Positions 16,478-44,300 of a DNA stretch of 64,000 nt are shown here, piece by piece. The translations under genes were made by a program, and so were the position numbers. This DNA comes from Dipteris shenzhenensis (taxonomy: Eukaryota), in NCBI GenBank assembly GCA_047967505.1, contig CM106538.1. One strand, given 5' to 3'. The notes below the pieces were generated by a model that had not been told where the DNA came from, searched no databases, and was given only the letters and a program-made list of their open reading frames with translations. Each line of letters starts with the position of its first letter. The stretch's first letter is position 1.

Positions 16478-19400
16478 TTGCACGCACCTTCAACTAGGTG
16501 GAATTGACTTACATGCAAAGTGGCATTCCCATCGCATAAGTACTTGATCGGATAACACACCTAGCAGCGTGTTTCTTTACGGATGTGCATGACACGAGCA
16601 AAAATAGTATTTAATGCTCGATTGACCATGCAGAGGATATCCGATGGGCACAACACTTTTCATATGCCTCAACCTAGGTGGTATTGAAATGTTCTCAAAG
16701 AGGCACTCCCATCCGATAAGTACTTGCTCAGATAACACACCTAAGGGCATGTTTTTTTACGGATGTGCATATCACTAGGGGAAAAACGGTGTATAATGTG
16801 TGATCGACCATGCAAAGCATATCTGATGGTCACAATACTTTGCACACACCTCAACCTAGTTGAAAGATAATTGCGTGCAAAGTGGAGCCCCCATCTGATA
16901 AGTACTTGTTTGAATAACACACCTAAGACCATGTTTTTTTATGGTTGTGCATTACACTAAGGCAAAAATGGTGTTCTATGCTTGATCCACAATTGAAAGC
17001 ATATCCGATAGGCACAATACTTTGCACACACCTTCAACTAGGTGGAATTGAATTACATGCAAAGTGGCATTCCCATCGCATAAGTACTTGTTGGGATAAC
17101 ACACCTAGCAGCGTGTTTTTTTACGGATGTGCATGACACTAAGGCAAAAATGGCATTTAATGCTCGATTGACCATGTAAAGCATATCTTATGGGCACAAT
17201 ACTTTTCCTACACCTTAACCTATGTGGTATTGAAATGTTCTCAAAGAGGCACACCCATCCGATAAGTACTTGGTCAGATAACATACCTAAGGGCATATTT
17301 TTTTACAGATGTGCATATCACTACTAGAAAAATGTTGTATAATGCGTGATCGACCATGCAAAGCATATCCAATGGTGACAATACTTTGGATGCACCTCAA
17401 CCTAGTTGAAACGGATGTGTGTGCAAAGTGGAGCCCCCATCCACTAAGTACTTGTTTGAATAACACACCTAGGACCGTGTTCTTTTATGGTTGTGCATGA
17501 CACTAAGGCAAAAACGGTGTTTTATGCTTGATCGACAATGCAAAGCATATCTGATGGGCACAATACTTTGCACACACCTTCAACTAGGTGGAATTGACTT
17601 ACATGCAAAGTGGCATTCCCATCGCATAAGTACTTGATCGCATAACACACCTAGCAATGTGTCTTTTTACGGATGTGCATGACACTGAGGAAAAAATGGT
17701 ATTTAATGCTCGATCGACCATGCAAAGGATATCCGATGGGCACAATAATTTTCCTATGCCTTAACCTAGGTGGTATTTAAATGTTCTCAAAGGGGCACAC
17801 CCATCCAATAAGTACTTGGTCAGATAACATACCTAAGGGCATGTTTTTTTGCGGATGTGCATATCACTACAGGAAAAACGTTGTATAATGCGTGATTGAC
17901 CATGCAAAGCATATCCGATGGTGACAATACTTTGCACGCACCTCAACCTAGTTCAAAAGGACTTGCATAAAAAGTGGAACCCCCATCCGATAAGTACTTG
18001 TTTGAATAACACACCTAGGACCGTGTTTTTTTATGGTTGTGCATGACACTAAGGCAAAAATGGTGTTTTATGCTTGATCGACAATGCAAGCATATCCGAT
18101 GGGCACAATAATTTTCACACACCTTCAACTAGGAGGAATTGACTTATAGGCAAAGTGGCATTCCCATCGCATAAGTACTTGATCGGATAACACACCTAGC
18201 AATGTGTTTTTTTACGAATGTGCATGACACTAAGGCAAAAATGGCATTTAATGCTCGATCCACCATGCAAAGCATATCCGATGGGCACAATAATTTTCCT
18301 ATGCCTTAAACTAGGTGGTATTCAAATGTTCTCAAAGGGGCATACCCGTTCGATAAGTACTTGGTCAGATAACATACCTAAGGGCGTGTTTTCTTGCGAA
18401 TGTGCATATCACTACTGGAAAAATGTTGTATAATGCATGATCGACCATGCAAAGCATATTCGATGGTGACAATACTTTGCATGCATCTCAACCTAGTTGA
18501 AATGGACTTGCGTGCAAAGTGGAGGCCCCATCCGATAAGTACTTGTTTGAATAACACACCTAGGACCTTGTTTTTTTATGGTTGTGCATGACACTAACGC
18601 AAAACCGGTGTTTTATGCTTGATCGACAATGAAAAGCATATCCGATGGGCACAATACTTTGCATACACCTTAAAATAGGTGGAATTGACTTACATGTAGA
18701 GTGGAACGCTCATCTCATAAGTGTTTGATAGGATAACATACCTAGCAGCGTGTTTTTTTACGGATGTGCATGACACTAAGGCAAAAATAGTATTTAATGC
18801 TCGATCGACCATGCAAAGGATATCGTATGGGCACAACACTTTTCCTATGCCTCAACCTAGGTGGTATTGAAATGTTCTCAAAGGGGCACACCCATCCGAT
18901 AAGTACCTAGTCAGATAACACACCTAAGGGCGAGTTTTTTTGTGGATGTGCATATCACTAGGGGAAAATCGGTGTATAATGCATGATCGGCCATGCAAAG
19001 CAAATCCTATGGTCACAATACTTTGCACGCACCTCATCTTAGTTAAAAGATACTTGCGTGCAAAGTGGAGCCCCCATCTGATAAGTACTTGTTTGAATAA
19101 CACACCCAGGACCGTGTTTTTTTATGGTTGTGCATTACACTAAGGCAGAAACGTTGTTTTATGCTTGATCCATGACGCAAAACATATCCGACGGGCACAA
19201 TACTTTGCACACACCTTCAACTAGGTGGAATTGACTTACATGCAAAGTGGCATTCCCATCGCATAAGTACTTGATTAGATAACACACCTAGCAGTGTGTT
19301 TTTTTATAGATGTGCATGACACTAAGGCAAAAATGGTATTTAATGCTCGATCGACCATGCAAAGCATATCCGATGGGCACAATACTTTTCCTATGCCTTA

Positions 19401-22400
19401 ACCTAGGTGGTATTGAAATGTTCTTAACGAGGCACATGCATTCGATAAGTACTTGGTCAGATAACATACCTAAGGGTGTGCTTTTTTGCGGATGTGCATA
19501 TCACTACGGGAAAAACGTTGTATAATGCGTGATCGACCATGCAAAGCATATCCGATGGTGATAATACTTTGCACGCACCTCAACCCAGTTGAAACGTACT
19601 TGTGAGAAAAGTGGAGCCCGCATCCGATAAGTACTTGTTTGAATAACACACCTAGGACCTTGTTTTTTTATGGTTGTGCATGACACTAAGGCAAAAACGG
19701 TGTTTTATGCTTGATCGACAATGCAAAGCATATCCAATGGGAACAATACTTTGCACACACCTTCAAATAGGAGGAATTGACTTACATGCAAAGTGGTATT
19801 CCCATTGCATAAGTACTTGATCAGATAACACACCTAGCAGCGTGTTGTTTTATGGATGTGCATGACACTAAGGCAAAAATGGTATTTAATGCTCGATCGA
19901 CCATGCAAAGGATATCCGATGGGCACAATATTTTTCCTATGCCTTAACCTAGTAGGTGGTATTAAAATGTTCTCAAAGGGGCACACCTATCCGATAAGTA
20001 CTTGGTCAGATAACATACCTAAGGGCATGTTTTTTTACGGATGTGCATATCACTACCGGAAAAATGGTGTATAATGCGTGATCGACCATGCAAATCATAT
20101 CCGGTGGTGACAATACTTTGCACGCACCTCAACCTAGTTGAAACGGACTTGTGTACAAAGTGGAGCCCCCATCCGATAAGTACTTGTTTGAATAACACAC
20201 CTAGGACCGTGTTCTTTTATGGTTGTGCATGACACTAAGGCAAAAACGGTGTTTTATGCTTGATCGACAATGAAAAGCATATCCGATGGGTGCAATACTT
20301 TGCACAGACCCTCAAATAGGTGGAATTTACTTACATGCAAAGTGGCATTCCCATCGCATAAGTACTTGATCGGATAACACACCTAGCAGTGTGTTTTTTT
20401 ATAGATATGCATGACTCAGGCAAAAATGGCATTTAATGCTCGATCGGCCATGCAAAGCATATCCGATGGGCACAATACTTTTCCTACACCTTAAACCAGG
20501 TGGTATTCAAATGTTCTCAAAGAGGCACACCCATCCGATAAGTAATGGGTCAGATAACATACCTAAGGGCGTGTTTTTTTGCGGATGTGCATATCACTAC
20601 CGGAAAAACGTTGTATAATGGATAATCGACCATGTAGAGCATATCAAATGGTGACAATACTTTGCACGCATCTCAACCTAGTTGAAACAGACTTGGGTGC
20701 AAAGTGGAGCCCCCATCCGATAAGTATTTGTTTGGTTAACACACCTAGGACCGTGTTTTTTTATGGTTGTGCATGACACTAAGGCAAAAACGGTGTTTTA
20801 TGCTTGATCGACAATGCAAAGCATATCCGATGGGCACAATACTTTGCACACACCTTCAACTAGGTGGAATTGACTTACATGCAAAGTGGCACGCCCATCC
20901 CATAAGTGCTTGATCAGATAACATACCTAGCAGCGTGTTTTTTTACGGATGTGCATGACACTAGAGCAAAAATAGTATTTAATGCTCGATCGATCATGCA
21001 AAGGATATCCGATGGGCACAACACTTTTCTGATGCCTTAACCTAGGTGGTATTGAAATGTTCTCAAAGAGGCACTCCCATCCGATAAGTACTTAGTCAGA
21101 TAACAGACCTAAGGGCGTGTTTTTTTGCGGATGTGCACATCACTAGGGGAGAAACGGTGTATAATGCATGATTAGCCATGCAAAGCATATTTGATGGTCA
21201 CAATACTTTGCACACACCTCAACCTAGTTGAAAGATAATTGCGTGCAAAGTGGAGTCCCCATCTGATAAGTACTTGTTTGAATAACACACCTGGGACCAT
21301 GTTTTTTTATGGTTGTGCATTACACTAAGGCAAAAACGGTTTTCTATGCTTGATCCACAATTGAAAGCATATCCGATGGGAAAAATACTTTGCACAAACC
21401 TTCAGCTAGGTGGAATTGAATTACATGCAAAGTGGCATTCCCATTGCATAAGTACTTGTTGGGATAACACACCTAGCAGCGTGTTTTTTTACGGATGTGC
21501 ATGACACTAAGGCAAAAATGGTATTTAATGCTCGATTGACCATGCAAAGCATATCTGATAGGCACAATACTTTTCCTATGCCTTAACCTAGGTGGTATTC
21601 AAATTTTCTCAAAGAGGCACACCCATCGGATAAGTACTTAGTCAGATAACATACCTAAGGGTGTGTTTTTTTATGGATGTGCATATCACTGCTGGAAAAA
21701 CCTTGTATAATGCATGATCGACCATGCAAAGCATATCCGATGTGTCAATACTTTGCACGCACCTCAACCTAGTTGAAACGGACTTGCGTGCAAGGTGGAG
21801 CCCCCATCCGATAAGTACTTGTTTGAATAACACACCTAGGACCGTGTTCTTTTATGGTTGTGCATGACACTAAGGCAAAAACGGTGTTTTATGCTTGATC
21901 GACAATGTAAAGCATATCCGATGGGTGAAATACTTTGCACACACCTTCAACTAGGAGGAATTGACTTACATGCAAATTGGCATTCCCATCGCATAAGTAC
22001 TTGATCAGATAACACACCTAGCAGCGTGTTTTTTACAGATGTGCATGACACAGGCAGAAATGGTATTTAATGCTTGATCGACCATGCAAAGCATATCCGA
22101 TGGGCACAATACTTTTCCTACACCTTAACCTAGGTGGTATTGTAATGTTCTCAAAGAGGCACACCCAGGGTCAGATAACATACCTAAGGGCGTGTTTTTT
22201 TGTGGATGTGCATATCACTACTAGAAAAATGATGTATAATGCGTAATTGACCATGCAGAGCATATCCGATGGTGACAATACTTTGCATGCATCTCAACCT
22301 AGTTGAAACAGACTTGCGTGCAAAGTGGAGCCCCCATCCGATAAGTACTTGTTTGATTAACACACCTAGGACCAAGGTAAAAACAGTGTTTTATGCTTGA

Positions 22401-22555
22401 TCGTCAATGCAAAGCATATCCGATGGGCACAATACTTTGCACACACCTTGAACTAGGTGGAATTAACTTACATGCAAAGTGGCATTTCCATCGCATAAGT
22501 ACTTGATCGGATAACACACCTAGGAGCGTGTTTTTTTACGGATGTGCATGACACT
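16478..22555 (+). repeat. 182-bp satellite with 3-monomer (546-bp) higher-order unit; about 33 monomers
   Basis: ATAAGTACTTG..GATAACACACCTA recurs every ~182 bp in three alternating variants (GGCATTCCC, GGCACACCC, GGAGCCCCC). Confidence 0.97.
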
Positions 22556-22569
22556 ATGTTCTCTCAGGA

Positions 22570-25141
22570 GTGGAAGAGCTTCAAGGTTCTCAATACTCTC
22601 GTAGAATATTGAATTCATTGAATGGTCCTAAGAGTATGTTAAAAACGAGGATGAGATCAACAGAGGATTATTCAATATTTAACTTTGATTGTGATATGGC
22701 CAAGGATGCAATGACCAATCATGGATGCTTGGTTACAAACAAATGTGAGGAGAAGAAGTGCATAAATACAGATAACAACGTGCACGTGGAACGAAAACGG
22801 TCATACATATGCATGAAGAGAAAGCGAATCCAGGCAGATCCACAAAAGCAACCAAAGAGGAAGAGAGTAATGAAGGAGGAGAACATGTTAAATGCATTGG
22901 GATATCTATGTTGCAAGCGAAGATGTATGCACTTCATTGATCTTGCAGACATCAAGGAATGTAGAGGACACATGTGGCAAAGAAGAGGAAGCGAAAGAAA
23001 TGAATACCTTCTCACAAGTCTCTCTTGCTTTCTTCAGAATGGCAATAAAAGGCTAAGTTGAAGACAAAAGGTAAAACCTCTCATGAATGAAAAAAAGATT
23101 TGCAATAAGGCATATCGCAATATTACTGGATTATCCCATGGTACATATTGGGATTTAGTCACCAAGGCAAAGGGTGGCAACACATTTAGCATTCACGGTA
23201 ATAGAGGAAGGTCCAAATCAAGAATCTCAACTATTAGGGCAGCAGCAATTTTGCAAGACTTCATACATGAAAATGCTTTACCTCAACCCCATATATCTAG
23301 CAAACTCCCTAACGGTGATGTGATCACTGAAATGCACCTTCCAATGGGCTTGACAAAGCTCGAAGTATTTGACTCTATTGCAAAAAAGCAAAGGCAAAGA
23401 GGGGATGCCGTAGCTTCTTCTCATACTTTGTATACTCTATGGAAGAAGAACTTTGGATATGTTAAAATCCCAAGGAGGCAAAAAATGTCAAAGTGCAATG
23501 TCTGTGATGATTTAAAGCGAGCGATTGAGAATGCAACATGTCCAAATCAAAGGGAATTATACAAAAAAAACCAAAATCTCATCATGACCTTATTCGACAT
23601 TCCAGACAAAAATATGCATTTTGGAAGGAGCAAGCTATTTGGCATCCTAATGAATACATGTGCCTTATTGTAGATGGCATGGATCAAAATACAACAACAT
23701 TGCCTTGTTTTGTTGCCACTCCACCTAAATTACAAGGAAAGCACTTTCTAAAGACACATCTATGTGGAGTGTTAGTGCATGGAATTAAGTTCTTTGTAGA
23801 TATATGGATTGATTCCTTGCATCTACATGATAGCAATCAAGTTGTAGCATCTATTATGAAGGCAATCCGCAATGTACATGCAGAAAAAGGTTGCCTACCA
23901 CCGACTTTGAGAATACAAGCTGATAATTGCTGGCAAGAAAATAAGAATCTACTCATGTTTGCATTCTGCTCCATGCTAGTTGCTCATCGAATCTTCAATG
24001 AGGTCGAATGTGGATTTTTGTATGTTGGGCATACACATGAGGATATCGATCAGGTTTTTAGCACAGTCTCAAGGGAGCTTAAATGCAAGGATGTGGAGAC
24101 AATAGATGACTTGGTAAGAAGATGTGGCAGGCAAGTTGGTGGTCGTAAGGAAAGTACAGTATGTGAGAGGCTCAAAAGAATGTATGATTGGAAGAGCTTC
24201 ATTCTACCTTTCATACAAACGGGTGGTGATGCATTGACAAGTCATATCAATCCACACTACTTCATTTTTTTTTGAAAGATGAAAAACTCGTAATGCAATG
24301 GCAACAGTATTCTCATGATACAAAATGGGAACGTGAAGAACCTTATAGTCTCTTAACTTCAATTCCCAGCAAGGAAAGGTATCCAACATGGGCTCCTATA
24401 CAAGAATTCAATGAGAGGTCTAACTGTGAAATAGAAGGATTAAAAGCATTTATTACATACAAAGAGGAAATGCTCCGGAGATATCCTGATTCGAAGCCTA
24501 CTTGGAGAGAACACACTACCACTGTAATTAACAAGACACGAAATTTAATAAAGGACCTTGAGAGAATGCGAGGCTTAAAGGATGTCAAGGAAGAATGCAA
24601 TATGTTTTGGCCAAATGTTCATAACGATTTGCGCCCAGCTCCAGTCTTTGAAAATGAATTTGTATCATTACTCCCACATCCATATTGTGAACCAAAGAAG
24701 AGAGAGTTTATGCCACAAGTAGATATAGAGGTCGATGGTTTTGTTGTGGTTTGGCCATCGGATGATGAATATGAGAATGTGAAGTTTTGGGTTGCAAAAG
24801 TAGTTGATGTGCAAAGAGATGACCAAGGGAGAGCTACAACATTTACAGCAGTATGGTATGAGCCAAAGGGCAGGAAGGAGAATATGGACAACAACACATT
24901 GTATACTAATTGTATAATAAAGGAGTGGGTCCCAAATGATGAAGCAGTCTCTCAAGTTTCGACGAAGACAATCATAGTGTCTTGGCATTCAAGGACAAAG
25001 AAATCAAAGAAGCGCATGGGATATGAGGTAGAAGGAAAAATAAAAATACCACAGCAAAGTATTTTGCATATACACGAATTTTTAAGGATGCTCGCCATGG
25101 AGGAAGTAGAAGGAGACAGCGCAAATGAAGAATGTCCATGA
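22570..25141 (+). pseudogene. Sola1-like / DUF7869-type DDE transposase of about 855 codons, with one in-frame stop and two homopolymer frameshifts
   Basis: N-terminal Cys motifs CCKRRC and CNVCD. Catalytic-type motifs IVDGMDQ, IQADNCWQENKN and FLYVGHTHEDIDQVFS. C-terminal FWVAKV..AVWYEP. Stop at 23059-61; frameshifts at the A-run (~23563-70) and the T-run (~24265-73). Confidence 0.8.
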
Positions 25142-25269
25142 TTAAAGGTTTGTATTGAAGTCCATTGAAGGATTTTATTTGGGTACTAGGCAAGAAGCCA
25201 ATTCAAGACAATTATAATCAGAGTCATCACCTCCTATGTCAAATGAGAGTCAAAATATGCACTGGATGT

Positions 25270-25490
25270 CACCCAAGGGTCAAGGCTTGGCAAGACAATA
25301 GGGAGTTAATGCAGATGGCACCTGGCAAGGGATTGTCACATTGACCAATAAGACAATGGGGAGTCAATGCACCCAAGGGGCAAGGCTTGGCAAGACAAGT
25401 GGGAGTTAATGTAGATGGCACCTGGCAAGGGACTATCGTGACATTGAGCAAGAAGACAATGGGGAGTCAAATTATGCAGATGGCATGAAT
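25270..25490 (+). repeat. About 100-bp tandem repeat downstream of the transposase
   Basis: CACCCAAGGG.CAAGGCTTGGCAAGACAA at about 25270 and 25370, plus a partial third copy. Confidence 0.8.
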
Positions 25491-26029
25491 TGAGGCTCTT
25501 TAAGAGCAACAATTTAAATTGTAAACATATGTTCAATCTATATCATTTTGGATACAAAGACTCCAGCTAAGAGCAACGTCTCTCAATGTAAACATATAAT
25601 GATAGCTATAATTGCTATTATAATTCTTTGGTTCAATACAAAACTTGGGTCTTATGGCATCATGTCTTTTTTCTATTTATTAAAAGTTTTAAAAATTTTG
25701 TGCATATTGCAAGTGACAATGTTATTTTCATGAAATATTTAAGTCTCCTTTCATGTATTTATAAATTTATCATGTCAAGGAAAAATATTAAAAATAATTA
25801 AATTAACAAATAACTTAGGTATAGCTAGAATTTCTAAAATAGGATTATTTCAAATTCTTGCATGTTGGTGCAAAAGTACAGATTGAAAAAACAATATTTT
25901 TATGTGAATATGATAGTGCCACAAAGTGAACTTTTGATTTAGGAAGAATATTTTTAGAAAGTAAAATTTTGATTTGGGAAGGATATTTTCACAAAGTAAA
26001 CTTTTCATTTGGGAAGGATTTTTGGGCTT

Positions 26030-26051
26030 CAAAATTAATGAAATAGGTGTT
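26030..26051. repeat. Putative terminal inverted repeat (22 bp) of the giant Sola-like element
   Basis: CAAAATTAATGAAATAGGTGTT, identical to 63864-63885. It is followed by TTAG, the reverse complement of CTAA. About 36-bp subterminal repeats lie at 25925-26020. Confidence 0.7.
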
Positions 26052-26330
26052 TTAGGTTAGTAAACTACTAATTAGTACCTGTTAGTGGTTGTTAGTGCAC
26101 GTTAGTTCAGTAACCTGCTAATTTAGTAATACTTAATGACATGCTATTTCATGCTTGTTAGTTTAATGCTATCTAGTGTTGCTTTTTTTTGCATGTTAGT
26201 GCCTGATAATGCATGTTAGTGTTGTCTGCTAGTGTTGCTTGTTATTGACCCACTTGTTAGTGCTTATTAGTTCAGTAACCTGCTAATTAGTACTTGTTGG
26301 TGCCTGTTAATACTTGTTGATTCTTGATCA
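26052..26330 (+). repeat. About 11-12-bp minisatellite (TTAGTGCTTG / TAATTAGTAC)
   Basis: Repeated GTTAGTGC and CTAATTAGTAC; the reverse complement occurs at 63886-64000. Confidence 0.8.
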
Positions 26331-26350
26331 TAATATGATCACTTTTGTAG

Positions 26351-27750
26351 ATAAAATTTTTTATCACATTGGATGTTTTCATGTGCAAGTTGAGTTATTT
26401 ATAGAGTTCAGTAAAAATTATCTAGACATCACAATGCAACAACACCCATTTGAATGATTAAAACCAGTTTTTGTCCGTAAATTAAAGGATAGATATACAT
26501 GTTGCTATATTCAACATGTCCAAATGGCCTTCTTGAAAGACTCCATCAATATCATGCGTCGTCTCAAAATCGGTCTACATGGAGTGCATTGTTATTGCAA
26601 TTATGAAATATGTGCAAGGGACAATACTGGAGTGTTTTTTATCAAAATATTCTAACCATACATACACTAGCATTATGTGCTTTTGAAAAAGTGTTTTTTA
26701 TCAAAAGCCTTCAAGAAGCATGTACTATCACTTGGAATGCCTCATGGGAGAATGTACTAGTTGTGAGCCAAAAACATTTCTGGCCTACCCATAAGGGAAG
26801 GTTAACTCTATGCACCATGTTTCCATTAAGGTTTTTGAGGATCTAGACACAGGGGGAGAAAAAAAGAAGAAAGGTGCTCACATTCAAGAAAATGACCAGT
26901 AGTGCCTTGTTACAGATGTCTTGGGATTGCATGAAGAATTTCATTAAGCATAACTTCAGGTGGCAAGCTGAACAATTTAAAGAGTGTCTGCAAAGGTTTC
27001 CTAAACATGTTGTTGTGTCTGTGGTGGTGGATTTTGCAAAAAATTACACCTTTAAGGAACAAAATGAGATACAATCTATGCACTGGCACTCAAACCAAGT
27101 CACTATTCTTGTTCAAATCACATATGTTTGGATAAGAGGTGAGGTTCAAAAAACCATCCATTTCTACATATATGATGACAAGGTGCATGATACTCTATTT
27201 ATTTAGCATTGTTTTATGCTACATCACAATTGGTTGGTAGGATAAGATTTAGCACTAAAGCAGCATTGGGTTTGGTTAGATGGTGCAGCTTCCTAGTTTA
27301 AAGCGAGATGGCCTTTTTTCTTTGTTGCAAGGTATCCTTCCTTAACTAACCTGAAGATGACATGGAATTACTTTAGCTCTGGTCATGGAAAGGGTGAGCA
27401 TGATGGAGAAGGGGCTATTGTGAAAAGAGCCTTGACACATGAGAAATTGAAGGAAAATTCAGATAAGCTTACTTGTGCTGCCGATGTGGTGAGGATTCTG
27501 CATTTAGATCTCTCAAATGGAGCTCAAGCCTCCTATCCATCAAAAGAAATGAATATAAGAAGGTTGTTCTGGGAGGTGAAGGTAGGAGAAGTGGATATAT
27601 CAGTAGCATGGGACTGTGCTCCTATTCCCCTAGTGCGATCGTTGCACTCAGTCTTTGGATTCTCAGAACACAAATGTAAATAGCTCAGAATGTGAAAGTT
27701 GTCATGCTATTGTTGTGCTTGCATTTCAAGTTCTTGGAAACATTGTATTC
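26351..27750 (+). pseudogene. Sola2-like DDE transposase remnant lacking its N-terminus
   Basis: LKPVFVRKLKDRYTCC..H, VVDFAKNYTFKEQNEIQSMHW, WLDGAAS*FK, GHGKGEHDGEG and SCYCCAC, with many stops. A TTTTGTAG acceptor-like site ends at 26350. Confidence 0.75.
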
Positions 27751-29102
27751 AAAATTTTTGGACTTTTTTTCCAAATAGGTCACCTCCACATCATATTCAC
27801 CTAGTACACTCAAAAATGGGTATTTTTAGAGCACTACATATATTCACTTGCACACAACTATGGCCTATAAAACAAGAGTAGAGGTATAGTGCATAGGGAA
27901 GAGAATGTGAGGGGAAGGAAATTTCATTTTTAGTATAGTATTGTGCACATTTGATGTCAAAAATGAAATCATTGTCCCTTTTTCAATAGTTTTGACAACA
28001 AACATGACTACATTCTCAAATTTCTAGTCAAAGTTATGATGGAAATGGGGAAAGGTAAAAAATTGGGGGTTATTACTAATGTACAACCAAAAATCACAAC
28101 TTAGTACATAAGCTCAAAGAGAAAAGCATAATTTCCAATCAATTTTATCTTCTCATTAATTTGTAATTAATTATTAATTATTTTTTAATCAATATTATTT
28201 ACTAATTAACTTCTCTTAAAAAATATAATGAATTGTTAATTAATCATCAATCTAGTTGTTATATAATTTTAATTACTAAATACCTCCTTAAGGAAAGATG
28301 CCTCAATAGCATTATTGACGCTGCCTACAGGATATTAGCCAATTCAAAAGGGAGGGAAGAAAGGATAGCAGATTACTTTGGTCGAGCAAATGTGGGCATC
28401 AAATTATTTCTTAATCATTTACTAATTAATTTGTTATTATTTATTCATTAAATATTAAATAAATTACATGTATATGATAATCCAAGAGTTGTTGCTATCA
28501 ACATATAGGTGGTGTAAAGATACACGTTTTTTTGAAAATGATGCATAAGATATCTTCTCTTATGTCTCTAAATATCCTCTAAAGTCATTAGTCTACTTTG
28601 TTGTAGCCTATTGATGCACAATTGAAAACCTAATAGCCCATTGATGCACACCTTAACCCTCATGTAGATTGAAATCCTGCATTCAGAAACAAAGGTTAGC
28701 AATGGAAATGGAAAGTAGAATTTAATTGCTTCTAAAATAATTTACTTGACTAGCAACCATCCCTCAAAATAGGAAACAAAACAAAAGATGCATGACTATG
28801 CTTCTAGCTTATGTGTGTATCTCTAATGGGCTTGATACTTTGCACAAGCATTAAATTAAATGTACTAAGTGAGATTCAGGGCTCTACATGGTTAGACATG
28901 CACATTTCTTAGTTTCTTAGCATGAATCATACATGAGTGTTAAAAAATATGCATAAGTGTACTTCTAGCCTATGGACCCATCTCTAATGAGCATAATACT
29001 TTAGATAAGCCTTAATCTAAGTAAGGTTAAGGCTTGTGCAAATCATCATATCCTTTGGATATCATTTTCATGGTTGTACATGCATATTTTCTTCTTTTCT
29101 TA

Positions 29103-29220
29103 CCTAAATCCTAAACCCTAAACCCTAAATCCTAAACCTTAAACCCTAAATGCTAAACCCTAAACCATCAACCCTAAATGTTAAACCCCAAATCTTAAAA
29201 GTTAAACCCTAATCCCTAAA
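29103..29220 (-). repeat. Degenerate interstitial plant telomeric repeat (TTTAGGG)n
   Basis: CCCTAAA, CCTAAAT and CCTTAAA units in tandem. Confidence 0.8.
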
Positions 29221-29599
29221 TTATAAAATAAGTTCCTTTGTTTAAGATCTAAACACTAAACCGTAATTTAATGGCATAAAATTACCAAAAAAAGTAAATT
29301 CTACAAGCATTTTTTTGAGAAACCCCCATTTTATGTTAATTTTTTTAAAAAATATAAATGTGAACAATTGTTCTAAAAAACTCACTTTGAGGTACAATAT
29401 GGAAAAAAAAACAAATGTGAAAATATGTTTTTGGGGAGAAAAGGCAAAAATTTTCAAATCTAGGAACTTTTTTTAAAAATCCTAAGTTTATGCTATTAAT
29501 TTGAAAAAAAAATCAAAATGGGACATGGTTTGAAAACTCTCACTTTGGGGTATAGATTTCATTAAAAATTAGAAATATGAAAAAAAATAAAAATGAGAG

Positions 29600-29797
29600 A
29601 GGAGGGGAGGGCAGACAACACATGTGCATATAAAAAGGGGAAGAGGGAGGAAGTGAGGGGGGAGTTGGGAGAGGGAGAGGGGGGACCGAAGAGGAGGGTA
29701 GAGGGAAAGTGAGGAAGGAGGAAGTAATAAGAGGGAGGGAGAGAGGAGGGAGTATGGAGAGGGAGACGGAGGGTGAGGATGGGAAAATCAAAGAGTC

Positions 29798-29828
<31 letters not shown>

Positions 29829-29946
29829 TCAAACCCCCCCCTTCTCTCTCTCTCCCCACTTCAACCCCCCCCTCTCTCTCTCTCTCTAAGCCCCCCCCCT
29901 CCCCCTTCCCACCAACATATGTGCCATATGTTGGTGGGAGGGGGGG

Positions 29947-29986
<40 letters not shown>

Positions 29987-30333
29987 CCCCCCCCTTCCCC
30001 ACACACACACACTTCTCCCTCTCCCAACCCCCCACTCCCTCACCTTCCCTCTCTCCTAGTCTCTGCTCCCTGCTCTCCCTTTCCCTACTCCTCCCTCACT
30101 CCCTCTCCCCTTTATTTCTTAAACCCCCCACCCCCCTGTCCCCCTTCAATATCTCCCTACTCCTCCATCACTCACTCCCTCTCCCTTTCACCCACATTGC
30201 ATGTAGTGAGAGGAGGAGGAGGGAAAGGGAGAGGAGGGGAGGGGAGAGCTGAGCGACGTGAGAAAGAGGAGGGGAGGGGAGAGCCAACATAAGAGAGAGA
30301 GAGCAGGGTGGGGGGGAGATGAGGGGAGAGGAG

Positions 30334-30394
<61 letters not shown>

Positions 30395-30650
30395 GGAAGG
30401 GGAGAGGCAACATGAGAGAGATAAGACGGAGAGATGAGCAACCTCTAAGAGAGAGGAGGGGAGGGGAGAGGGGATAGCTGTGTGAGAGAGAAGAGGGGAG
30501 ACGGGAAGGGCAACATGAGAGAGAGAGAGGAGGGAAGAGTTGAGGGATGGGAGAGAGAGGTGGGCGACATGAGAGAGAGGAGGGGATAGATGAGCAACAT
30601 GAGAGAGAGGAAGGGAGGAGAGGGAAGGGGCGAAGTGAGAGAGAGGAGGG
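29600..30650. repeat. Low-complexity GA/CT tracts
   Basis: (CT)n and (GA)n runs with strand switches. Confidence 0.85.
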
Positions 30651-30659
30651 ATTGGAATC

Positions 30660-31850: not shown

Positions 31851-31857
31851 TGACTCA

Positions 31858-32912
31858 AGTGAGTTCGAGTTGTCAGTCTAGGACTCAGGAGTCAAGAGGA
31901 AGAGATAATGTTATGAGAATTAATTAGGATAATACAATTTATTTGAAGGTCCATTGGACCCTTAGCCCTTCTTTTGATAATCTCATGATCTAGTCACTCT
32001 TATTGCCATGAAGGGTTAAATTGAAGATCTCTCTTCTTCTGATAGCTAAATTTTTTTACACTCCTTCTCTAAAGGACAAAATGGCCTCAAAAGGGTCTCG
32101 TAGGCTTCAAATTTGAGGACTAAATATAACCTTTAGTTTTAAAGTCCTTAGGCAACATTAACCCGTATTCCAAAGATACCTTATTAATATAGCCTTGATT
32201 TTCAAGATATATCTTGTAAATACCCTTAAAGTCAAGCCTTTGCCATAAAATTTGATCCTTTTAAATAACCTTGTTCTCATCACTTAAGCCATTTTTTCCG
32301 GTTCAAAATACACTAAAGGATGGTTTTTTTCTATCACTTCCTCGAGCACCTCACATGCTCTTTCAAAACATCAACAAAGAACCTCGAAATTTGTTGGTGC
32401 AGCCCGTGGTGGGAATATGGAGTAGACAAGTCACTAGAGACTTGAGAGATTGGTTCGAAAGTGTAGCCTGTAGCTTGTAGGTTCAAAATAGTTGAAGAAT
32501 TGGTTTGTTGAATGAGAGAGGAGAGGCCTCAGGCAAGGATTGCAAGTGGAGGGAATTTCGAAACATGAAAGTGACTCGTGAGTTCAAGACTCGAGTTGTG
32601 AGGCTAGGACTCAGGACTCATCACTAGTCATCAGGAGGAAGTCCTAAGAGATAATGTTATGAGAACCTAGGATAATAATACGATTTATTAGAAGGTCCAT
32701 TGGACCCTTAGCCCTAGATAATAATGTGATTTGTTAGAAGGTCCATTGGACCCTCAATCCTTCTTTTGATAATCTCATGATTTAGTCACTCTTCTTGCCA
32801 TGAAGGGTTAAATTGAAGATCCCTCTTCTTCTAATAGCTAAATTGTTTTACACTTCTTCTCTGAAGGCCAAAATGGCCTTAGAAAGGGTCCTAAAGGCTT
32901 CAAATTTGAGGC
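31858..32912 (+). repeat. Pair of 270-330-bp diverged direct repeats
   Basis: GAGATAATGTTATGAGAA...GAAGGTCCATTGGACCCT...GGCTTCAAATTTGAGG at about 31860-32120 and 32580-32912. Confidence 0.8.
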
Positions 32913-33199
32913 CTGGTTCACACACATGATATACCAAACATCAACACTCGTCAATGATGTACATCATACAAAGAAAGTTTCAATGTTCTCAGAAGGCAAG
33001 GCTTTTAGGATACGTCTACTATGTTCTCCAAGAAAAAGTTAACAATCCCAATTCCCTCATATTTTGATGTTGAATCCTTGGGTTCTTTCCAATGTAATGG
33101 AAAAATATCATCATGGGATCATCCTTAGACTACTCTAAGATCTAGCATCGAATCTACATACTCCAAGATTTGCCACAAACCATCTCATCCATGTAGCCT

Positions 33200-34300
33200 C
33201 ACGTCCAATTTTGAAAATCTTGAATACTACACTATCACCTTTAACAACCTCCATCGAAAACTTTATAGCATTAAATGCCATTGATTTGAGTATCTAGATC
33301 CTTTAGGATTTTGATCGAGCAATTCGAACATCAAATCTCTTAGCTCTTAGTAGTATAACCCTTTCTCAAATCATGAATTTTGTTCAATAACATTATTCCA
33401 TCCATTCTTCAAAGTATGATTAGTCATATGCTTGATAGTAGTGCACCTTAGATGGAGAAGAATAGCATGCTCATCAATATTTTGAACCTTAGCATTCACC
33501 ACCAAATCTTGTCTCCTATATCAAGAGCATTGCTCAATGTAAACTTCATATGCTACATCTGTGCTTGGACTTTCAAGGATCACCAACATCACAATTGCTT
33601 GAAGGATCACAACAATATCACAAATTTCAAGAGCATCGTTCAACACATCATAGTGAACTTGATATGTTGCATCTTTGATTGAAGGATCATAAACATGTCA
33701 ATCACTTGATGGAACTAGTGTGATATGTTCCCAACATGAAAGGGGTGCTTTGTTAGAATACATCTTCCACATACCTTGAAAGCATGCATTATAGTAGCAT
33801 GATCTAAGTGGTGCTAAGTGTTGAAGAGTACCCATTAACAAAATGAAGGGAAAGAGTGTTAGGGATGGAATCATAATCCATAAGACATCTCTATTCACAT
33901 TTTGCTCTTTAACTTCCTAGAAAAAGCATTCAAAATCTTTGCCTTTTAGGAGATATAAAGTGTGAGCATCCATTTTATGCTAGCCTATAGGAATGTCACA
34001 ACATCACTAGCACATTATAGCTTTGCACCACCTTGCTTTATATTTTTATGAGTGAACATTCTATTTACAATGGCCCTTGCACTATCGTGCTCTCCCTTGC
34101 CATGTCCAGGTTTAAGAAAGTTCCAAATCATGCACAAGCTAGTGAGACTAATAGACATGAGCATGAATAGTGAACTAAAAAGGTCTACATGCTTTGAAAT
34201 GGGAGGCTATGCCATCAAACCAAACTCAATGTTTCTATACAAGTAATTACAATCATTCGTGGTGTAACATAAAGCAATGTTATATGAACAAATTTTTGTG
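33200..34300 (-). pseudogene. Second Sola2-like transposase remnant
   Basis: Manual minus-strand translation gives VWFDGIASHFKACRPF and WNFLKPGHGKGEHDSARAIV, paralleling the motifs at 27270-27430. Confidence 0.65.
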
Positions 34301-34873
34301 CTTCTTATCATTGGAAATTTAGAAGGTTATAAATATAGGGAAACGTTATGTAGAAGGTTATATATAAGGTAAGGTGGTACTCTTTTTCCACTTTAAAGTG
34401 GTCAAGTTTTGTCATTCCCAAAAGGTACACAAGTGGGAGGACTTTTGGAGATTCAAATTGTACATGCTTGGGACCAATGTAGTAGATGCTTGCAATAACA
34501 CCATGTAGAGCTCAAACACACTTTATCTACTTTGCAAAGCTTGACATTAGGTTACTAAATGTGTGTTCTTTCAAACACACTTTATCTGCTTTGCAGAGCT
34601 TGACATTAGGTTACTAAATTGCCACTATCTCAAAGCATAGCTTAAAAGATACAATTTTAGTTCTCTCTCTCTCTATGTGTGTGTGTGTGTGTGTCACGGA
34701 ATCAAACACCAATATCTACTTATCATGACTGTGCAAGGGCTAGTTAGCACATTAAAACTTTGAGCTACCCATCAACAAATTGTGACAGCTCTTACACATC
34801 ATCCTAGATGAAACGATATTTAAAAAATAACTTTCAATTTGGATCTAAGAATAAACACACCCTACCTGTTAAT

Positions 34874-36600
34874 TTAAAAATAGTGTATAAAATTACTCCT
34901 GCTATAAATATATCTTTGTAAGTCTTGAGAATTAAAATACCCCTCATTTTGAACTCTCATAGTATACTTACATTTTCTAGATGGACCCCCCGAGGGTATG
35001 ACAGACCATGCATTTCGAACCCTGCTGCATATAGCAGGATAGGCATCTGATCTAACTATTGCGGCCGTCAATACCACAGTCTTGCTCTGTACATGATGAA
35101 GTTGCTTCTTGATTCCTTCCTCCCTCATCCTAAGGCTACAGATGTTCTCCTTCATCTCCTCCACTTTTTGCTCACTCTGTGCAACATCTACATTAGAATC
35201 CCTCAGCATCTGTTGAACTTTCGTAAACTCTTGAAAAACTTCTTCATGGGTGGTTTCCAAGACTTCCACTCTAGTTTGGAAATCTCACAGGGTGACGGAA
35301 AGCTTTTCATAACTATCGAAAGCCACAGCAAGCTTGTGCAAACATCTATCGTGATCTTCTTGAAGGATATTGTAGGTTCCTCTTTGGACCTCCAACAGTG
35401 TTTCATAAAAACAACCCTCACCGTGGCTGCTACAAATTTCTCCACTGTGGTGGCTCGAACTTTCTCCACCATGGTGGCTGCTCTCTACATCCTCCCTGGC
35501 CTAGGGAGCTACCTCGTTGTCTTCTCCACCTCGGCTCCTCTCTGCCCCCCATCCTTCCTAGCCTCAAAGCTCTCTCGCAGTTCCTACATCACCTTTCTGG
35601 TTTCTGCATTCTCCCTTTTTAGCTCCTCCATCATCTGGTCTTTTTCAATGTTCAATGAGCTTTACATGTTGTAGAGCCATTTGTAAATACCCTCCTTTTT
35701 GGCTCTTTGATCTTCAAGGTCCTTTCGCATCATTTCTAGCTCCTTGTCCGCCAGGTCCCTGCCATTTCTCACTTCTTCGAGCCCAACTTGGAGCTCCTTC
35801 ATGTTCTTCTTTGCTTCTTCTCTTCAATGCCTTTCCATGTCGACCAATTTTGTGGTAGCCTCAGCTTTCTCTTGTGCCTGACCCTCACTTGTGCATTGCC
35901 TTTGCTGCATCGGTGGCTTTCTCTTGTAGAAAAGTCACCTTCTGAGACATCTTCTTCTTGTATTGCTCAAAGATCCCTTTGAGGGTGGATGCGATGAGGT
36001 GCATTGCAACTCCAGCGGACTCAAATGACAATTGGGATTTGCCATCCATGCAATTCTTTAGGTTGGTTAACATGCTCTTGGAGATCGCCCTTGAGAAAGA
36101 TACATCACATCCTTTCAGTTGCTCTACTTTTGCTTGAACTTGCCAAAACTTGCATGTTCCTCTCGTATCAAGAAAGAAGTGAATTGTCTTCTTCCGTACA
36201 TCTTGGAGGCCTGTTGGCAAGCTCAAAATCTTGACTCCACCATCTTTACTAATCTGAGCATTGGGGTATACGTCTAGAATATTCTATCTCTTCCACTACT
36301 TCTCGAAAAAGTGTGCTTGCGTACTGCCTCCATAAATTTCTAGAGCCTTTTCAATCATGCTTTCATTGATGGCAATCTTGTGACCTTGACAGACTAGTTG
36401 CCCCTCCTTCACATTCACCTCCTGCACCATCCTGGTGAAGTTTTGGAGAGCATCCAAATTGGGCTTTTGAATAGCAAGAGAGGAGCTCCCATATGTCACG
36501 ATTTCAAGATGAGGGAAGGAGGGGCTCTGGCACTATGCTACAGAGGGGGAGGAAAGATTGTGTGAGGAACTCCCGAACTGCTGTGCAGGGTCCATTATGA
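34874..36600 (-). pseudogene. Fragmented ORF with coiled-coil character, unknown and probably TE-derived
   Basis: Collinear minus-strand ORF pieces (36296-36499, 35885-36226, 34874-35269) rich in E, K and Q; no recognisable domain. Confidence 0.35.
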
Positions 36601-37478
36601 GAGGGGATAGAAGTTGCTAGAAGAGTGCAAGGAAGAAAGAAATGATCAAGAGGGATAGAAGATCAAGCAATGAAGGCAATGGAATAGTGGATTCTTGAGA
36701 AAGATACAACTCCCCTAGTCATCTTCTGCTCACCACTCATCTTCAGCATGCCTAGTTGGTCCCCTCCCCTCCTTGATGCTCTGTATCCCAATAATATCTG
36801 CCTTCTCGTATAAGGTGATTGCATTGCACTCACATAGAATAGAAATGCTCACACTAGTGATGCACTATTGTTAACTTTTATATTTGTATTTCAATGGTTA
36901 TGGCTGGCTCTCAGTATGCACTATTGTTAACTTTTATATTTGTATTTGAGTGGTTATGGCTACTACCTATAATCTTTTGTTTAAGGCTCTTAGCAATTGC
37001 CTTTTTTATAAATGTAAGGTCCTCTGTTCAATTTTTGCTTGGTATAAGTTGATAATTTTTATATAACCTGTTATTGGACGTAAATGTACATTGTAATCTC
37101 TTTTGCTCAATTTTCACGCAATAAATTGTACTTTTGCCATCATTTATATTTACAACAATAAGGAATAAAATACCAGGAAAGAAGGACTATAATTTCCTTG
37201 GTTTATGACCAAAATAGTGCTAAAATAACTCCAACGACCCCACCATTGTGGTTGCATGGAGATACATCTAGAAAAATATAATTAAACTTTTCGAGAATGC
37301 AATTGACGATATACATTTTCCTTGGTACACAAATATATCTCCAAGAACCAATGCGATGGATTTTATGAATCTCCTCTCGTAATATGTAAAAATAGGTAAC
37401 GAAGCTGTAACTTCAAGAACTAGCGCGGTGGTCTCTCCAAGACAACCTTGAATTCTGGGCAATGACAAGTGGTCACGC

Positions 37479-37840
37479 TGTTGAAATGTGCAATGTCCAA
37501 TTGTTGGAATATTGTGTTGGTACCCTAGAGGGGTATGTTTGTGGGAATTATGGTAGCCACACAAGAGGATGTGGACTACATGAATGGATGTGGGACATTG
37601 GTCACCACAAGTTGGATGTGGATCAGAGGATGCCACACAGTAGGCTTATGCCTTGAGACTCTCTATATAAGAGGTCTATCATTGTATTGTTTATCAAGCA
37701 TTGGAATAGATTGATTGAGTGTTGCCTACATTGTTGTATCTCCCGTAATGGATTTTCTTGTATGGTTCAATCCTCCATGATTGTTACACTAATCTCATGT
37801 AGCCCTAGGCTTAGTGGCGGTCTCATTCAGTTTCTTAACA
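37479..37840 (+). mobile_element. Solo LTR (362 bp)
   Basis: TGTTG...TAACA termini, a perfect 5-bp TSD CACGC (37474-78 and 37841-45) and an internal TATATAA. Confidence 0.88.
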
Positions 37841-38459
37841 CACGCCAGATACTGCACTGAGGTGATTCTCAAAATGATAGATTGCATCTCATTATTATGC
37901 CAAAAACCAACGCAGTGGTCTCTCTAAGCCAACCTATGATTTGCATGGGCTGTAGGCAAAGAAGCGACAAAAGGTTGTATGATGATAGGTGGTCAACTGC
38001 ACTGCAGTGGTGTTTAGAATGATAGATTGCGTCTAATTATTATGGCAAGAACTCGCGCAGTGGTCTCTCCAAGCCAACCTTCAATTTTAATGATCTGCAT
38101 GGGTGCATGCCCAGTGACAGGTGGCAAAGAAATGGCTGCATGATAATAAGTGATCAGGCGACATAGGCCAGAGACTGCGCTACACGAAGGAGTGCAAAAA
38201 TGCCATGTTCGAGCTATGCGATGTTCTAAACAAATAGATTGCATCTCATTATTATGCCAATGTGCCTTCATGACATCAGGAAAATTTCCAGCGAGAGTGC
38301 AAGTCCGTGAAAATTTTAAATATTTACCCAGAAGCGCATCGCATCGTAGCCCCAAAATTAGTTTCACGATTGGCTACACCCAAGCTAACGTTGACCCTTA
38401 ATGTGAGTTTTGTGTGATTTGTTGTTTTACTTATTTGTGTGTTTTCTAGTGTTTTGCAG

Positions 38460-39056
38460 ATTTGAGGAGAGGCTAAGGAAAAATCATGCAATGTCACTGA
38501 AGCATTATAAGGCTGAGCATCTTCGTAGGCCATTGAAGAGCTATGATAAGGATTTTTTTTCACCTATGAACAGTTGATGCACCATATGCCACCTATGGTA
38601 GATGGGGATGCTACATTGTGTTGTATGCTTTCTTGCAACCTATAGGCAATCAGTGTACTATGGTGAGTTTTGTTTAATTGAGCATTGGTTTGTATTTTGC
38701 ATGTTTATGTTTAAGTTGTCTGATGTTGTGTTGTGTTGTAGGTTTGGAATAATAGGAACCGTGTTGGTGTTAAGACTTTTAAGGGTTTGGTTTCTTCGAT
38801 GATGAATACAGTAGCTGGTGGTGAGAAGGGTAAATTCACAAATAAGAATTTGAGGAGCACTGCATTTAATCATTTATCATTTGCCGATGTACCTAGGGAG
38901 GTTGCTACAAAGTTTTCTAGGCATAGGTGTGTGAGTTCATTTCATAAGTATGAGGCAACTAATGATGTACAAATGCTTGCATGTGAGAGTTTGATTGAGC
39001 AACCTTATGATGAGTTTGGAAAGCAGAGCACTTATGAGTCTACTTTGAGTGATTGA
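38460..39056 (+). pseudogene. Crypton-like tyrosine recombinase C-terminal fragment with introns
   Basis: VWNNRNRVGVKTF...GKFTNKNLRSTAFNHL...SRHRCVSSFHKYE resembles the W..G.N.L / TNHSLRAT / GHRS..Y boxes. GTGAGT...AG introns at 38403-38459 and 38663-38741. Confidence 0.6.
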
Positions 39057-41380
39057 CTGGCAAATTATTCTCGGAATGTGGATGGTGTTGGGGTTGTGGA
39101 TGATCAAGTTCATGTTTCTTCTAGTTCTTCTTCATCTTTGATTTCTACTATGGTTTCTAGTGTGGGGCATTTGGATGCAGCTCCGTCCTTTGGCTATTGT
39201 TTATCTAGGTGTTGACGCTTGTTGTGGGAATGAATATCTGAATGGTGTTCAAGTTGATTTTGGTTTTGTGAAGTGTATTGTTGTTACTAGAGTTAAAGCT
39301 GTTGTGCTCCTGGTGAGATTGTTTGTGGTGGTGGAGTTGTTTCTACTGCGAAAGGTGTTGCTGGAGTCGAATCTGACGCTTTATCTGTAATTGTTTCTAT
39401 TACTAGTACTGGAGTTGGTTCTAGATTTGCTTTGATTTTTTACATATTCAACTTTCCAAAGGTCTTTCCACTTATGCACCTTAAAAGTGGTTCCAATCTT
39501 CACAATCCATAAACACTTGGTAGACATCTTATGCCCTTTTGCATAGCCTTTTCCAAGTACACTCATCACTAGGTGAAACCAAGCACCTAGAAGTGTAACA
39601 CCATAGAATGATTGAGGCATAACCCCCCCTCCCTCCACCACCACCCATTCAAAACCCGAGGTGGGCCACAATTAAATCTGGATCGTCTTATCAAAACCAA
39701 TTCCTATGTAGAATACTACCTCGAATACCCTACCGTTAAAATTTGCCAAAAAAAATCACCAAACGACACGTATATAGTTTCATAAATTGAATAACTGACA
39801 GAAAAAACTTCCCATGTACACGTAATTAAATATGAACAAAATTAACCAATGAAAAATTGACACATTCAAATTTTAACAACCAATTTAAAAACACAAAATA
39901 TTATATTTCAATTATTAGTTTGTTACCTCCAACAACTAGTAACAACTATAGTCAATGCCATAAATCTTCTTCTTCTTCTCAAAACTGCAAACATCAAGAG
40001 AACGCTCGTAGAAATGAAAGACATGGTCCTTGAAAGAACCAGCAACACTATAGCTTGAAGAATGAGCACCGCCACCAAACCGATCCACACTCATCAGGAC
40101 AACACTGAACTAACTTGTGCAAAAAAATTCCTCATCTTCCTCCAAAGCTCGCCAAAATCAGACACCTTCTTAAAGCTCTTCACACCACTTCCAATAGGAA
40201 CAGATCCACCAAATGAAACTACAACTAGAATAGAACTTGCAAATGAAACATCACCACCAACAGGGTTGATTCTCTTGGTTCTCTTGGTTTGGTTGGTTAT
40301 GGATCTTGCTCTATTGGATCTGTTACTAGTGCTAGAGTTGGTTCTAGATTTGCTTCAGTTCTTTGTAGGGATGATTCTCTTGGCTCGCTTGGTTCAGTTG
40401 GTTTTGGATCTTTATCCATTGGTTCTCTTTATTTTGGTATAGCTTCGGTTGCTTCTGAAGGAGGTTCGATGGTTCAGGTTTTCTTGCTGGTGGTTCTGAG
40501 TTCTATGGTCCTATTTCATGTAGTGGTTTGGGTCCTATTTCATCTAGCAGTTTGAGTTGTATTGCTGTAGGGGATGTTGGCAGAATTTTTGGTGCTGTAT
40601 TTACAATTTAAAGAATCAAAGCAAGCAAGTGGATCAATGATCATGAAAAGAACATCAATGATCATGGATTGCATGCATGGTTCCAACCACGGTGTGTAGG
40701 ATGTCCACTCTGATTAGTTTGTGGAACTCATCCCATGGCTTGTCAATGCCTACAAAAAATGGCCAATCTTTGGAAGGGTGATGTGCATGTAAACTTTTGG
40801 AAAAACACACAAGGAACGTTATTGGTTCCTTAATTTCACATTCTGCCATAGACTTACCAAATCCATTGTTGAAGATTCATCATTTCAGCCTATATATCTA
40901 TCTTCATTCGCGAGATTTGCTGTGTATAGGGCTATCTCTAGCCCTTTCCTTGGGTATGAAGGGAGGCTATCTCTTATCCTCAACTTATCCTCGAAAAAAA
41001 TAACAAAGCTTGACTCATTCTAGTCCTTTGAGATGGGAATTACAGAAACAGCAGATCCACGCTGCGAAGAGCCTGGCCATTTGCTTAAGTTTTGCCTGTG
41101 TGCATATCTTGTTGAGCACCCTCTTCATCATCAATCTTCTACGATGCTTGGTTTTATTCATGTCATCAACTCCATCGCTTGCCACAACTGCAGCAACTCT
41201 GCTCGAGCATTCTGATGCCACATTCACATTCTTGAAGCTGAAGCTGCTAGAGTTACCGTCCGACTCCTTGCCTTCTTCGATCCCACGTACTACTTCCTTT
41301 GCCGAGGACGTGAACTCGACTGCACTGCTCAAACCAAACGACAGGCTTATTTCTCCCAACCATGATGACTCGTTCTCTAC

Positions 41381-44300
41381 AAATTATTGTGCCCATCCGA
41401 TATGCTTTGCATTATCGATCAAGCATAAAACACCATTTTAGCCTTAGTGTAATGCACAACCATAAAAAAACACGGTCCTAGGTGTGTTATTCAAACAAGT
41501 ACTTATCAAATGGGGGCTCCACTTTGCACGCAAGTATCTTTCAACTAGGTTGAGGTGGGTGCAAGGTATTATGACCATCAGATATGCTTTGCATGGCGGA
41601 TCACACATTATACACCGTTTTTCTCCTAGTGATAAGCACATCCGCAAAAAAACACGCCCTTAGTGTGTTATCTGACCAAGTACTTATCGGATGGGTGTGC
41701 CTCTTTGAGAGCATTTCAATACCACATAGGTTGAGGCATAGAAAAAGTGTTGTGCCCATCAGATATCCTTTGCATGGTAGATCGAGCATTAAATACTATT
41801 TTTGCTCTAGTGTCATGGACATCCGTAAAAAAACACGCTGCTAGGTATGTTATCTGATCAAGCACTTATGGGATGGACGTGCCACTTTGCATGTAAGTCT
41901 ATTACACCTAGTTGAAGGTGTGTGAAAAGTATTGTGCCCATCGGATATGCTTTGCATTGTTGATCAAGCATAAAACACCGTTTTTGTCTTAGTGTCATGC
42001 ACAACCATAAAAAAACACGGTCCTAGGTGTATTATTCAAACAAGTACTCATCGGATGGGGGCTCCACTTTGCACGCAAGTCTGTTTCAACTAGGTTGAGG
42101 TGCATGCAAAGTATTGTCACCATCGGATATGCTTTGCATGGCCAATCATGCATTATACACCGTTTTTCCCCTAGTGACATGCACATCCACAAAAAAACAC
42201 GCCCTTAGGTGTGTTATCTGACCAAGTACTTATCGGATGGGTGTGTCTCTTCAAGAAAATTTCAATACTACCTAGGTTGAGGCGTAGGAAAAGTGTTGTG
42301 CCCATCGGATATCCTTTGCATGGTCGATCCTCGGGGGGGTCACTATGTATAAACCCTCTATATCACGTGCGTTCAAGGCCTATATTTAAAATCCCTTATC
42401 TGTAAATTTTTTCATTAATAAAATGTACCCCTTTTCTATACAAATCTGTAAATTTTTTCCAAAATTATTTTAAATAGTCCCTTATGGATATTTATTTATG
42501 TAAATTTAATATCCTTCTGTTGAACTCACGTGATAGGGTTACATATGATGAGTGACCCCCCTGAGGGTCGATCGAGCATTAAATACCATTTTTGCCTTAG
42601 TGTCATGCACATCCGTAAAAAAACACGCTGCTAGGTGTGTTATCCGATCAAGCGCTTATAGGATGGGAGTGCCACTTTGCATGTAAGTCAATTCCACCTA
42701 TTTGAAGGTGTGTGCAAAGTATTGTGCCCATCGGATATGCTTTGCATTGTCGATCAAGCATAAAACACCGTTTTTACCTTAGTGTCATCCACAACCATAA
42801 AGAAACACGGTCCTAGGTGTGTTAATCAAACAAGTACTTATCGGATGGGGGCTCCACTTTGCACCCAAGTATGTCTAAACTAGGTTGAGATGCGTGCAAA
42901 GTATTGTCCCCATCGGATATGCTCTGCATGGTCGATTACGCATTATACAACGTTTTTCCGGTAGTGATATGCACATCCACAAAAAAACACACCCTTAGGT
43001 ATATTATTTGACCTAGTACTTATCGGATGGGTGTGCTGCTTTGAGTAAATTTCAATACCACCTAGGTTAAGGTGTAGGAAAAGTATTGTGCCCATCAGAT
43101 ATGCTTTGCATGGTCGATCGAGCATTAAATACCTTTTTTGCCTGTGTCATGCACATTTGGAAAAAAACACGCTGCTAGGTGTGTTATCCGATCAAGTACT
43201 TATGTGATGGGAATGCCACTTTTCATGTAAGTCAATTCCACCTATTTGAAGGTGTGTGCAAAGTATTGCACCCATCGGATATGCTTTGCATTGTTCATCA
43301 AGCATAAAATACCGTTTTTGCCTTAGTGTCATGCACAACCATAAAAGAACACGGTCCTAGGTGTGTTATTCAAACAAGTACTTATCGGATGGGGGCTCCA
43401 CTTTGCATGCAAATCCGTTTCATTTAGGTTGAGGTGCGTTCAAAGTATTGTCACCATCGGATATGCTTTCCATGGTCGATCACACATTATACAACGTTTT
43501 TCCGGGAGTGATATGCACATCGGTAAAAAAACGCGCCCTTAGGTATGTTATCTGACCAAGTACTTATCGGATGGGTGTGCCTCTTTGACAACATTTCAAT
43601 ACCACCTAGATTAAGGCATAGGAAAAGTATTGTGCCCATCAGATATGCTTTGCATGGTCGATCGAGCATCAAATACCATTTTTGCCTTAGTGTCATGCAC
43701 ATCCGTAAAAAAACACGCTGCTAGATGTGTTATCCCAACAAGTACTTATGTGATGGGAATGCCACCTTGCATGTAATTCAATTCCACCTAGTTGAAGGTG
43801 TGTGCAAAGTATTGTGCCCATCGGATATGCTTTCAATTGTGGATCAAGCATAGAACACCGTTTTTGCCTTAGTGTAATGCACAACCATAAAAAAACACGG
43901 TCCTAGGTGTGTTAGTCAAACAAGTACTTATCAGATGGGGACTCCACTTTGCACACAATTATATTTCAATTAGGTTGAGGTGCGTGCAAAGTATTGTGAC
44001 CATCAGATATGCTTTGCATGGCGGATCATGCATTATACGCCATTTTCCCCTAGTGATATGCACATTCGCAAAAAAACACGCCCTTAGGTGTGTTATCTGA
44101 CCAAGTACTTATCGCATGGGAGTGCCTCTTTGAGAACATTTCAATACCACCTAGGTTGAGTCATAGGAAAAGTGTTGTGCCCATCGGATATCCTTTGCAT
44201 GGTTGATCGAGCATTAAATACTATTTTTGCTCTAGTGTCATGCACATCCGTAAAAAAACACGCTGCTAGGTATGTTATCTAATCAAGAACTTATGGGATG

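Follow-up and report, generated by a model that had tools for sequence, protein, structure and literature searches.

A probable 24.9-kb inversion that split a higher-order satellite array in Dipteris shenzhenensis

In the stretch of Dipteris shenzhenensis DNA analysed here (64,000 nucleotides of contig CM106538.1, assembly GCA_047967505.1, referred to below as the window), a tandem satellite is present in two arrays of opposite orientation, located on either side of a long segment that carries the remnant of a transposase-like gene. This arrangement is best explained by a real two-break inversion of ~24.9 kb that divided what had been a single array, a reading to which a probability of about 0.7 is assigned. 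The satellite has a period of 182 bp, detected by Tandem Repeats Finder at 16478-22371 and 41381-52032. A BLAST comparison of the first monomer with the window returned 95 matches and none outside the two arrays, the copies being all on the plus strand within 16478-22554 and all on the minus strand within 41381-52032; the limit of the left array was accordingly moved from 22371 to 22554. A literature search with a 22-nucleotide word of the satellite found no publication, and nothing specific was found on a 182-bp satellite; the monomer length of ~180 bp would at most be suggestive of a centromeric satellite.

The monomers of both arrays are organized at a higher level. Identity to the query monomer cycles every three copies, with values of ~90%, 74%, and 77%, which indicates a higher-order repeat of three monomer types, A, B, and C, in units of ~546 bp. 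Monomers that lie three apart are 87-93% identical, against 72-80% for neighbours, as is characteristic of higher-order satellites, and 546-bp units taken in register are 88-93% identical to each other. The first base of the left array (16478) is position 1 in an A monomer and its last base (22554) is position 118 in another A monomer; the right array, read on the minus strand, begins at ~position 37 (as placed by BLAST alignment) of a monomer that reads as C-type, and terminates at the final base of a C monomer (41381-41383).

The right array also displays a number of local irregularities: a register jump at 46347/46348, corresponding to the deletion of a partial unit, a 293-bp duplication at 46055-46640 whose two copies are 89% identical, and one additional monomer between in-register units near 50250-50433. 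It is further broken at 42330-42557 by an insertion of ~228 bp with imperfect terminal inverted repeats, of which ~14 nucleotides are near-perfect by eye and 47-50 nucleotides align at 74% by BLAST, and which is bordered by an 8-bp direct duplication of a satellite word (42322-42329 and 42558-42565). This insertion looks like a miniature inverted-repeat transposon.

The boundaries between satellite and unique sequence that face each other across the proposed inversion are defined to the base. At the left junction, unique sequence extends to 16477 and is followed by the trinucleotide TTG and then by satellite; at the right junction, unique sequence extends to 41379 and is followed by CAA, which is TTG on the minus strand, and then by satellite of reverse orientation. 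The sequences of both junctions agree with those given in the first-pass annotation of this DNA, which had proposed a clean reciprocal inversion of one array at a 3-bp TTG core. Each of them joins sequences of opposite former orientation, as is required of a two-break inversion. When the left array is appended to the right one, the latter read on the minus strand, and a single TTG core is retained, the fit between the two array ends is exact at the level of single bases and preserves the higher-order register. The spacing between the anchor at the monomer end and the one at the next monomer start is 11 nucleotides at the restored joint, the same as at all of the other boundaries found (28/28), in agreement with the earlier claim that the joined halves are in correct monomer phase. 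The existence of the A-B-C repeat makes the test of phase a stricter one, and the six monomers around the joint are in A B C / A B C register, each being 90-94.5% identical to the consensus of its own type and at most 82% identical to those of the other types, a margin of at least 10 points. In the restored concatenation, in-register units start at 9316, then, beyond the insertion, at 10106, and, on the other side of the joint, at 10653 and 11197; the step over the joint is 545 (547 in the concatenation, which holds two extra core bases), against the usual 544-546. The two units that flank the joint are 91% identical, compared to a mean of 85.8% for units at lag 1, and belong to one subtype. 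Independent array ends would fit in this manner by chance in ~1 of 546 pairs.

Re-inversion of the segment thus gives a continuous array at the array breakpoint, with nothing gained or lost. It is well supported that the inverted arrays are the halves of one array and not two terminal repeats, as had been suggested from the junctions: the passage from one half to the other preserves monomer phase, unit subtype, and higher-order register, and the outer ends of the arrays are asymmetrical. Mean unit identity is 85.7% within the right half, 87.2% within the left half, and 86.5% between the two, with no differentiation between halves. Since units resemble those of the other half as closely as those of their own, either the split would be young relative to the turnover of the array, or the array would be static. 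The best identity between a left and a right unit is 94%, and no near-identical inverted copy is found at the junctions, which argues against a duplication or an artefact of foldback reads. Unit pairs at 93-94% identity are common to both halves, and suggest that segmental duplications had taken place before the split. In our own reading of the identity matrix, the units sort into two subtypes, X and Y, which alternate (X Y) along part of the right array and follow the order X Y Y Y in the left one; the joint has a unit of subtype X on either side.

Table 1. Coordinates of the arrays, junction cores, flanks, and neighbouring elements in the window (o/e, observed/expected ratio).
Feature	Position	Strand	Description
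Left non-array flank	16090-16477	+	GC 0.50, CpG o/e 0.58, 14 CpG; ends at left breakpoint
TTG core, left junction	16478-16480	+	First three bases of A-type monomer
Left satellite array	16478-22554	+	~33 monomers of 182 bp in A-B-C units
DUF7869 transposase-like gene remnant	22552-25141	+	Four overlapping frames; abuts inner end of left array
Non-satellite part of inverted segment	22555-41379		18.8 kb; no satellite matches
Right non-array flank	41040-41379	-	GC 0.48, CpG o/e 0.77, 14 CpG; ends at right breakpoint
TTG core, right junction	41380-41382	-	CAA on plus strand
Right satellite array	41381-52032	-	A-B-C units as in left array
Copia-type element	3829-6227		Integrase, SH3-like, and RVT_2 (reverse transcriptase) domains; Pfam

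The other breakpoint would have separated the two non-array flanks, and here the evidence is one of composition. Both flanks are richer than their surroundings in GC and in CpG (Table 1; surroundings 0.41 and 0.31, respectively), and the density of 14 CpGs in a flank of ~340-390 bp is matched by only 2% of 2314 non-satellite windows of 340 bp. Once the original orientation is restored, the flanks form a single GC/CpG peak of ~700 bp that extends from about -477 to +223 around the flank joint, as had been predicted of sequences formerly contiguous. Most of a stop-to-stop frame of 89 amino acids (16209-16475) falls within the left flank, and the right flank is covered by a frame of 121 amino acids on the minus strand (41380-41018). 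The description of the flanks as coding-like found no backing in homology. A Pfam search of the 102 frames of at least 45 amino acids in the two flanks yielded no family above the cut-off (DUF7027 and EzrA appeared below it), and a word-index search of longer proteins found no relative for either the left-flank or the right-flank frame. For the right-flank frame, HMMER gave 0 matches among 1.84 billion representatives, and a protein atlas gave no usable match. The same protein collection contains eukaryotic proteins, and thus the blank has some meaning, in that the flanks do not represent a conserved coding gene. A resemblance of the restored flank joint to a 3' splice site was also noted, and then set aside.

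Several observations are neutral toward, or weigh against, former contiguity of the flanks, and with it a simple inversion. The 89- and 121-amino-acid frames share a strand once orientation is restored and are one base out of register, and no single open frame runs through the restored flank joint, with or without the TTG. In the restored orientation, the GC and AT skews are -0.04 and -0.03 in the left flank versus +0.26 and +0.14 in the right one. Repeats or elements that could link the two flanks amount to nothing beyond chance matches of 11-19 nucleotides, and the exact 24-nucleotide ends of each flank gave 0 and 0 matches in metagenome contigs. Composition is the one line of support for the view that the flanks were once neighbours, which nothing outside the window confirms, and the claim of a clean reciprocal event, which holds for the array breakpoint, has as its backing at the flank breakpoint the shared GC/CpG-rich block; in a similar manner, the absence of gain or loss stands on the array side, and on the flank side would be an assumption, the origin of the TTG being ambiguous. 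On the array itself, the adjacency of two X units at the joint is found nowhere else in our subtype reading of the matrix, so that the restored array is not perfectly regular at the super-unit level. The lack of outside confirmation, the frames out of register, the differing skews, and the irregular X-X adjacency would all be compatible with an event of at least three breaks, or with an excision followed by inverted re-insertion, in which the array was split and the flanks never were neighbours. Such an event seems unlikely: it requires more breaks than a simple inversion, and a random third breakpoint would seldom place both flanks in the 2% most CpG-dense class with one joint peak.

That the 24.9-kb segment was simply misoriented by the assembler has in its favour that satellite arrays are difficult to assemble and that no reads were placed over the junctions. 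Nevertheless, both junctions pass abruptly from unique sequence to satellite with neither N bases nor filler, and a false flip would presumably require two false joins without supporting overlap. Identity among array units close to the joint is only 87-94%, which makes collapsed or foldback reads unlikely, and, given the abrupt junctions and the lack of near-identical inverted copies, misassembly would be improbable. The arrangement also calls to mind foldback transposons, whose long inverted arms consist of tandem subrepeats. Like them, the locus has inverted tandem-repeat arms of unequal length around a segment with a transposase-like gene, which lies beside one of the arms, and it could be read as a foldback-type or giant transposon with satellite arms that carries the DUF7869 gene. 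Unlike in those elements, the outer ends are not mirrored, with the left array opening on the first base of an A monomer and the right one at ~position 37 of a C-reading monomer, and there is no target-site duplication at the outer ends, where the flanking words are unrelated; these two features leave a foldback-type element without support. In addition, a search for terminal inverted repeats of the inner gene was negative, and a foldback element does not predict the exact fit between the outer end of the left arm and the inner end of the right one, which continues in phase. This reading, along with that of two independent arrays which happen to fit by chance, is scarcely plausible.

If the two-break inversion is correct, the starting state would have been a single array of ~16.7 kb, composed of ~546-bp A-B-C units on the present minus strand. 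One break would have occurred exactly at a C/A monomer boundary of this array, and the other ~24.9 kb away, inside the ~700-bp GC/CpG-rich block. The segment between the breaks, of which ~6.1 kb was array and the other 18.8 kb non-satellite DNA, would then have been rejoined in reverse via end joining, generating the present order of left flank, TTG, plus-strand array half, 18.8 kb of non-satellite DNA ending in the right flank, CAA, and minus-strand array half. The TTG could represent a 3-bp microhomology present at both original sites, or could have been duplicated when both ends of a 3-nucleotide staggered break in the array were filled in. An inversion mediated by a transposon was rejected, since neither element ends at the breakpoints nor terminal inverted repeats were found.

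The kind of rearrangement proposed here is ordinary and well known, and involves no new mechanism. Two-break inversions repaired through end joining are described for Drosophila, where the junctions show either short microhomology or small inverted duplications left by staggered breaks. The present case is similar, in that an identical 3-bp word is found inverted at the two junctions and no repeated element lies at the breakpoints, and differs in that the missing ancestral arrangement leaves microhomology and a 3-bp staggered duplication inseparable. Inversions and strand switches within, or at the edge of, centromeric and pericentromeric arrays are known from human alpha-satellite and from the 178-bp satellite of Arabidopsis. 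A review of centromeric rearrangements, PMC6194107, and a study of rearrangements from the repeat-rich heterochromatin of Triticeae, PMC13393857, reportedly deal with related events. As in the centromeric cases, an array of ~180-bp monomers with higher-order units occurs here in both orientations through a flipped segment. In contrast, one of the two breakpoints lies outside the array, and 18.8 kb of non-satellite DNA separate the halves; a centromeric position of this satellite would be putative.

What the locus offers is a probable inversion whose breakpoint within a higher-order satellite array is placed to the single base, with no breakpoint repeats and a 3-bp shared core. It could serve as a marker for comparisons between haplotypes or species and help to judge how well a satellite region has been assembled, and further rearrangement might start from the inverted array halves. 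A decidedly doubtful extension of the two-break inversion is that the non-array break cut a CpG-rich transcription unit specific to the lineage (a promoter or an orphan exon, without relatives) and that a large inverted repeat was formed at the same time. If this were true, the inversion would have disrupted or rewired a gene, and the inverted repeat, whose arms measure 6.1 and 10.7 kb and enclose 18.8 kb, could flip by recombination between its arms, or could yield satellite hairpin RNA that feeds silencing.

Within the 18.8-kb interior lie the DUF7869 gene remnant, low-complexity blocks of TC/GA sequence, and a run that resembles telomere repeats. The gene remnant is recognized by the Pfam family PF25273 at 23529-24275 (E 1.4e-50), and its frame has 177 relatives at E<=0.001, with lengths of 435-1424 amino acids among the matches listed, where sea urchin, crinoid, amphioxus, and Chara are named. 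Terminal inverted repeats were not found around the gene, and a literature search found no publication that mentions DUF7869. A second group of frames, without a Pfam family, is present at 26847-27683. The telomere-like run is interstitial (29103-29220) and consists of ~17 degenerate copies of a plant-type heptamer with 72-79% matches, as detected by Tandem Repeats Finder.

The window as a whole is plant-like, with a GC content of 41% and a CpG observed/expected ratio of 0.31 in non-satellite DNA, and contains no N bases. Among its 36 frames of at least 90 amino acids, Pfam recognized Copia-type domains and DUF7869 and no other families, and Rfam and tRNA scans of the window gave zero matches. 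The Copia-type element is adjoined by a 323-bp tandem duplication at 2079-2729 with 99% identity. Immediately after the right array, a purine-rich (GA/GGA) block of low complexity extends over 52033-57300 and is CpG-dense at 52.8-54.2 kb, and switches from TC-rich to GA-rich sequence are found at 29796-30564 and 10772-11500.

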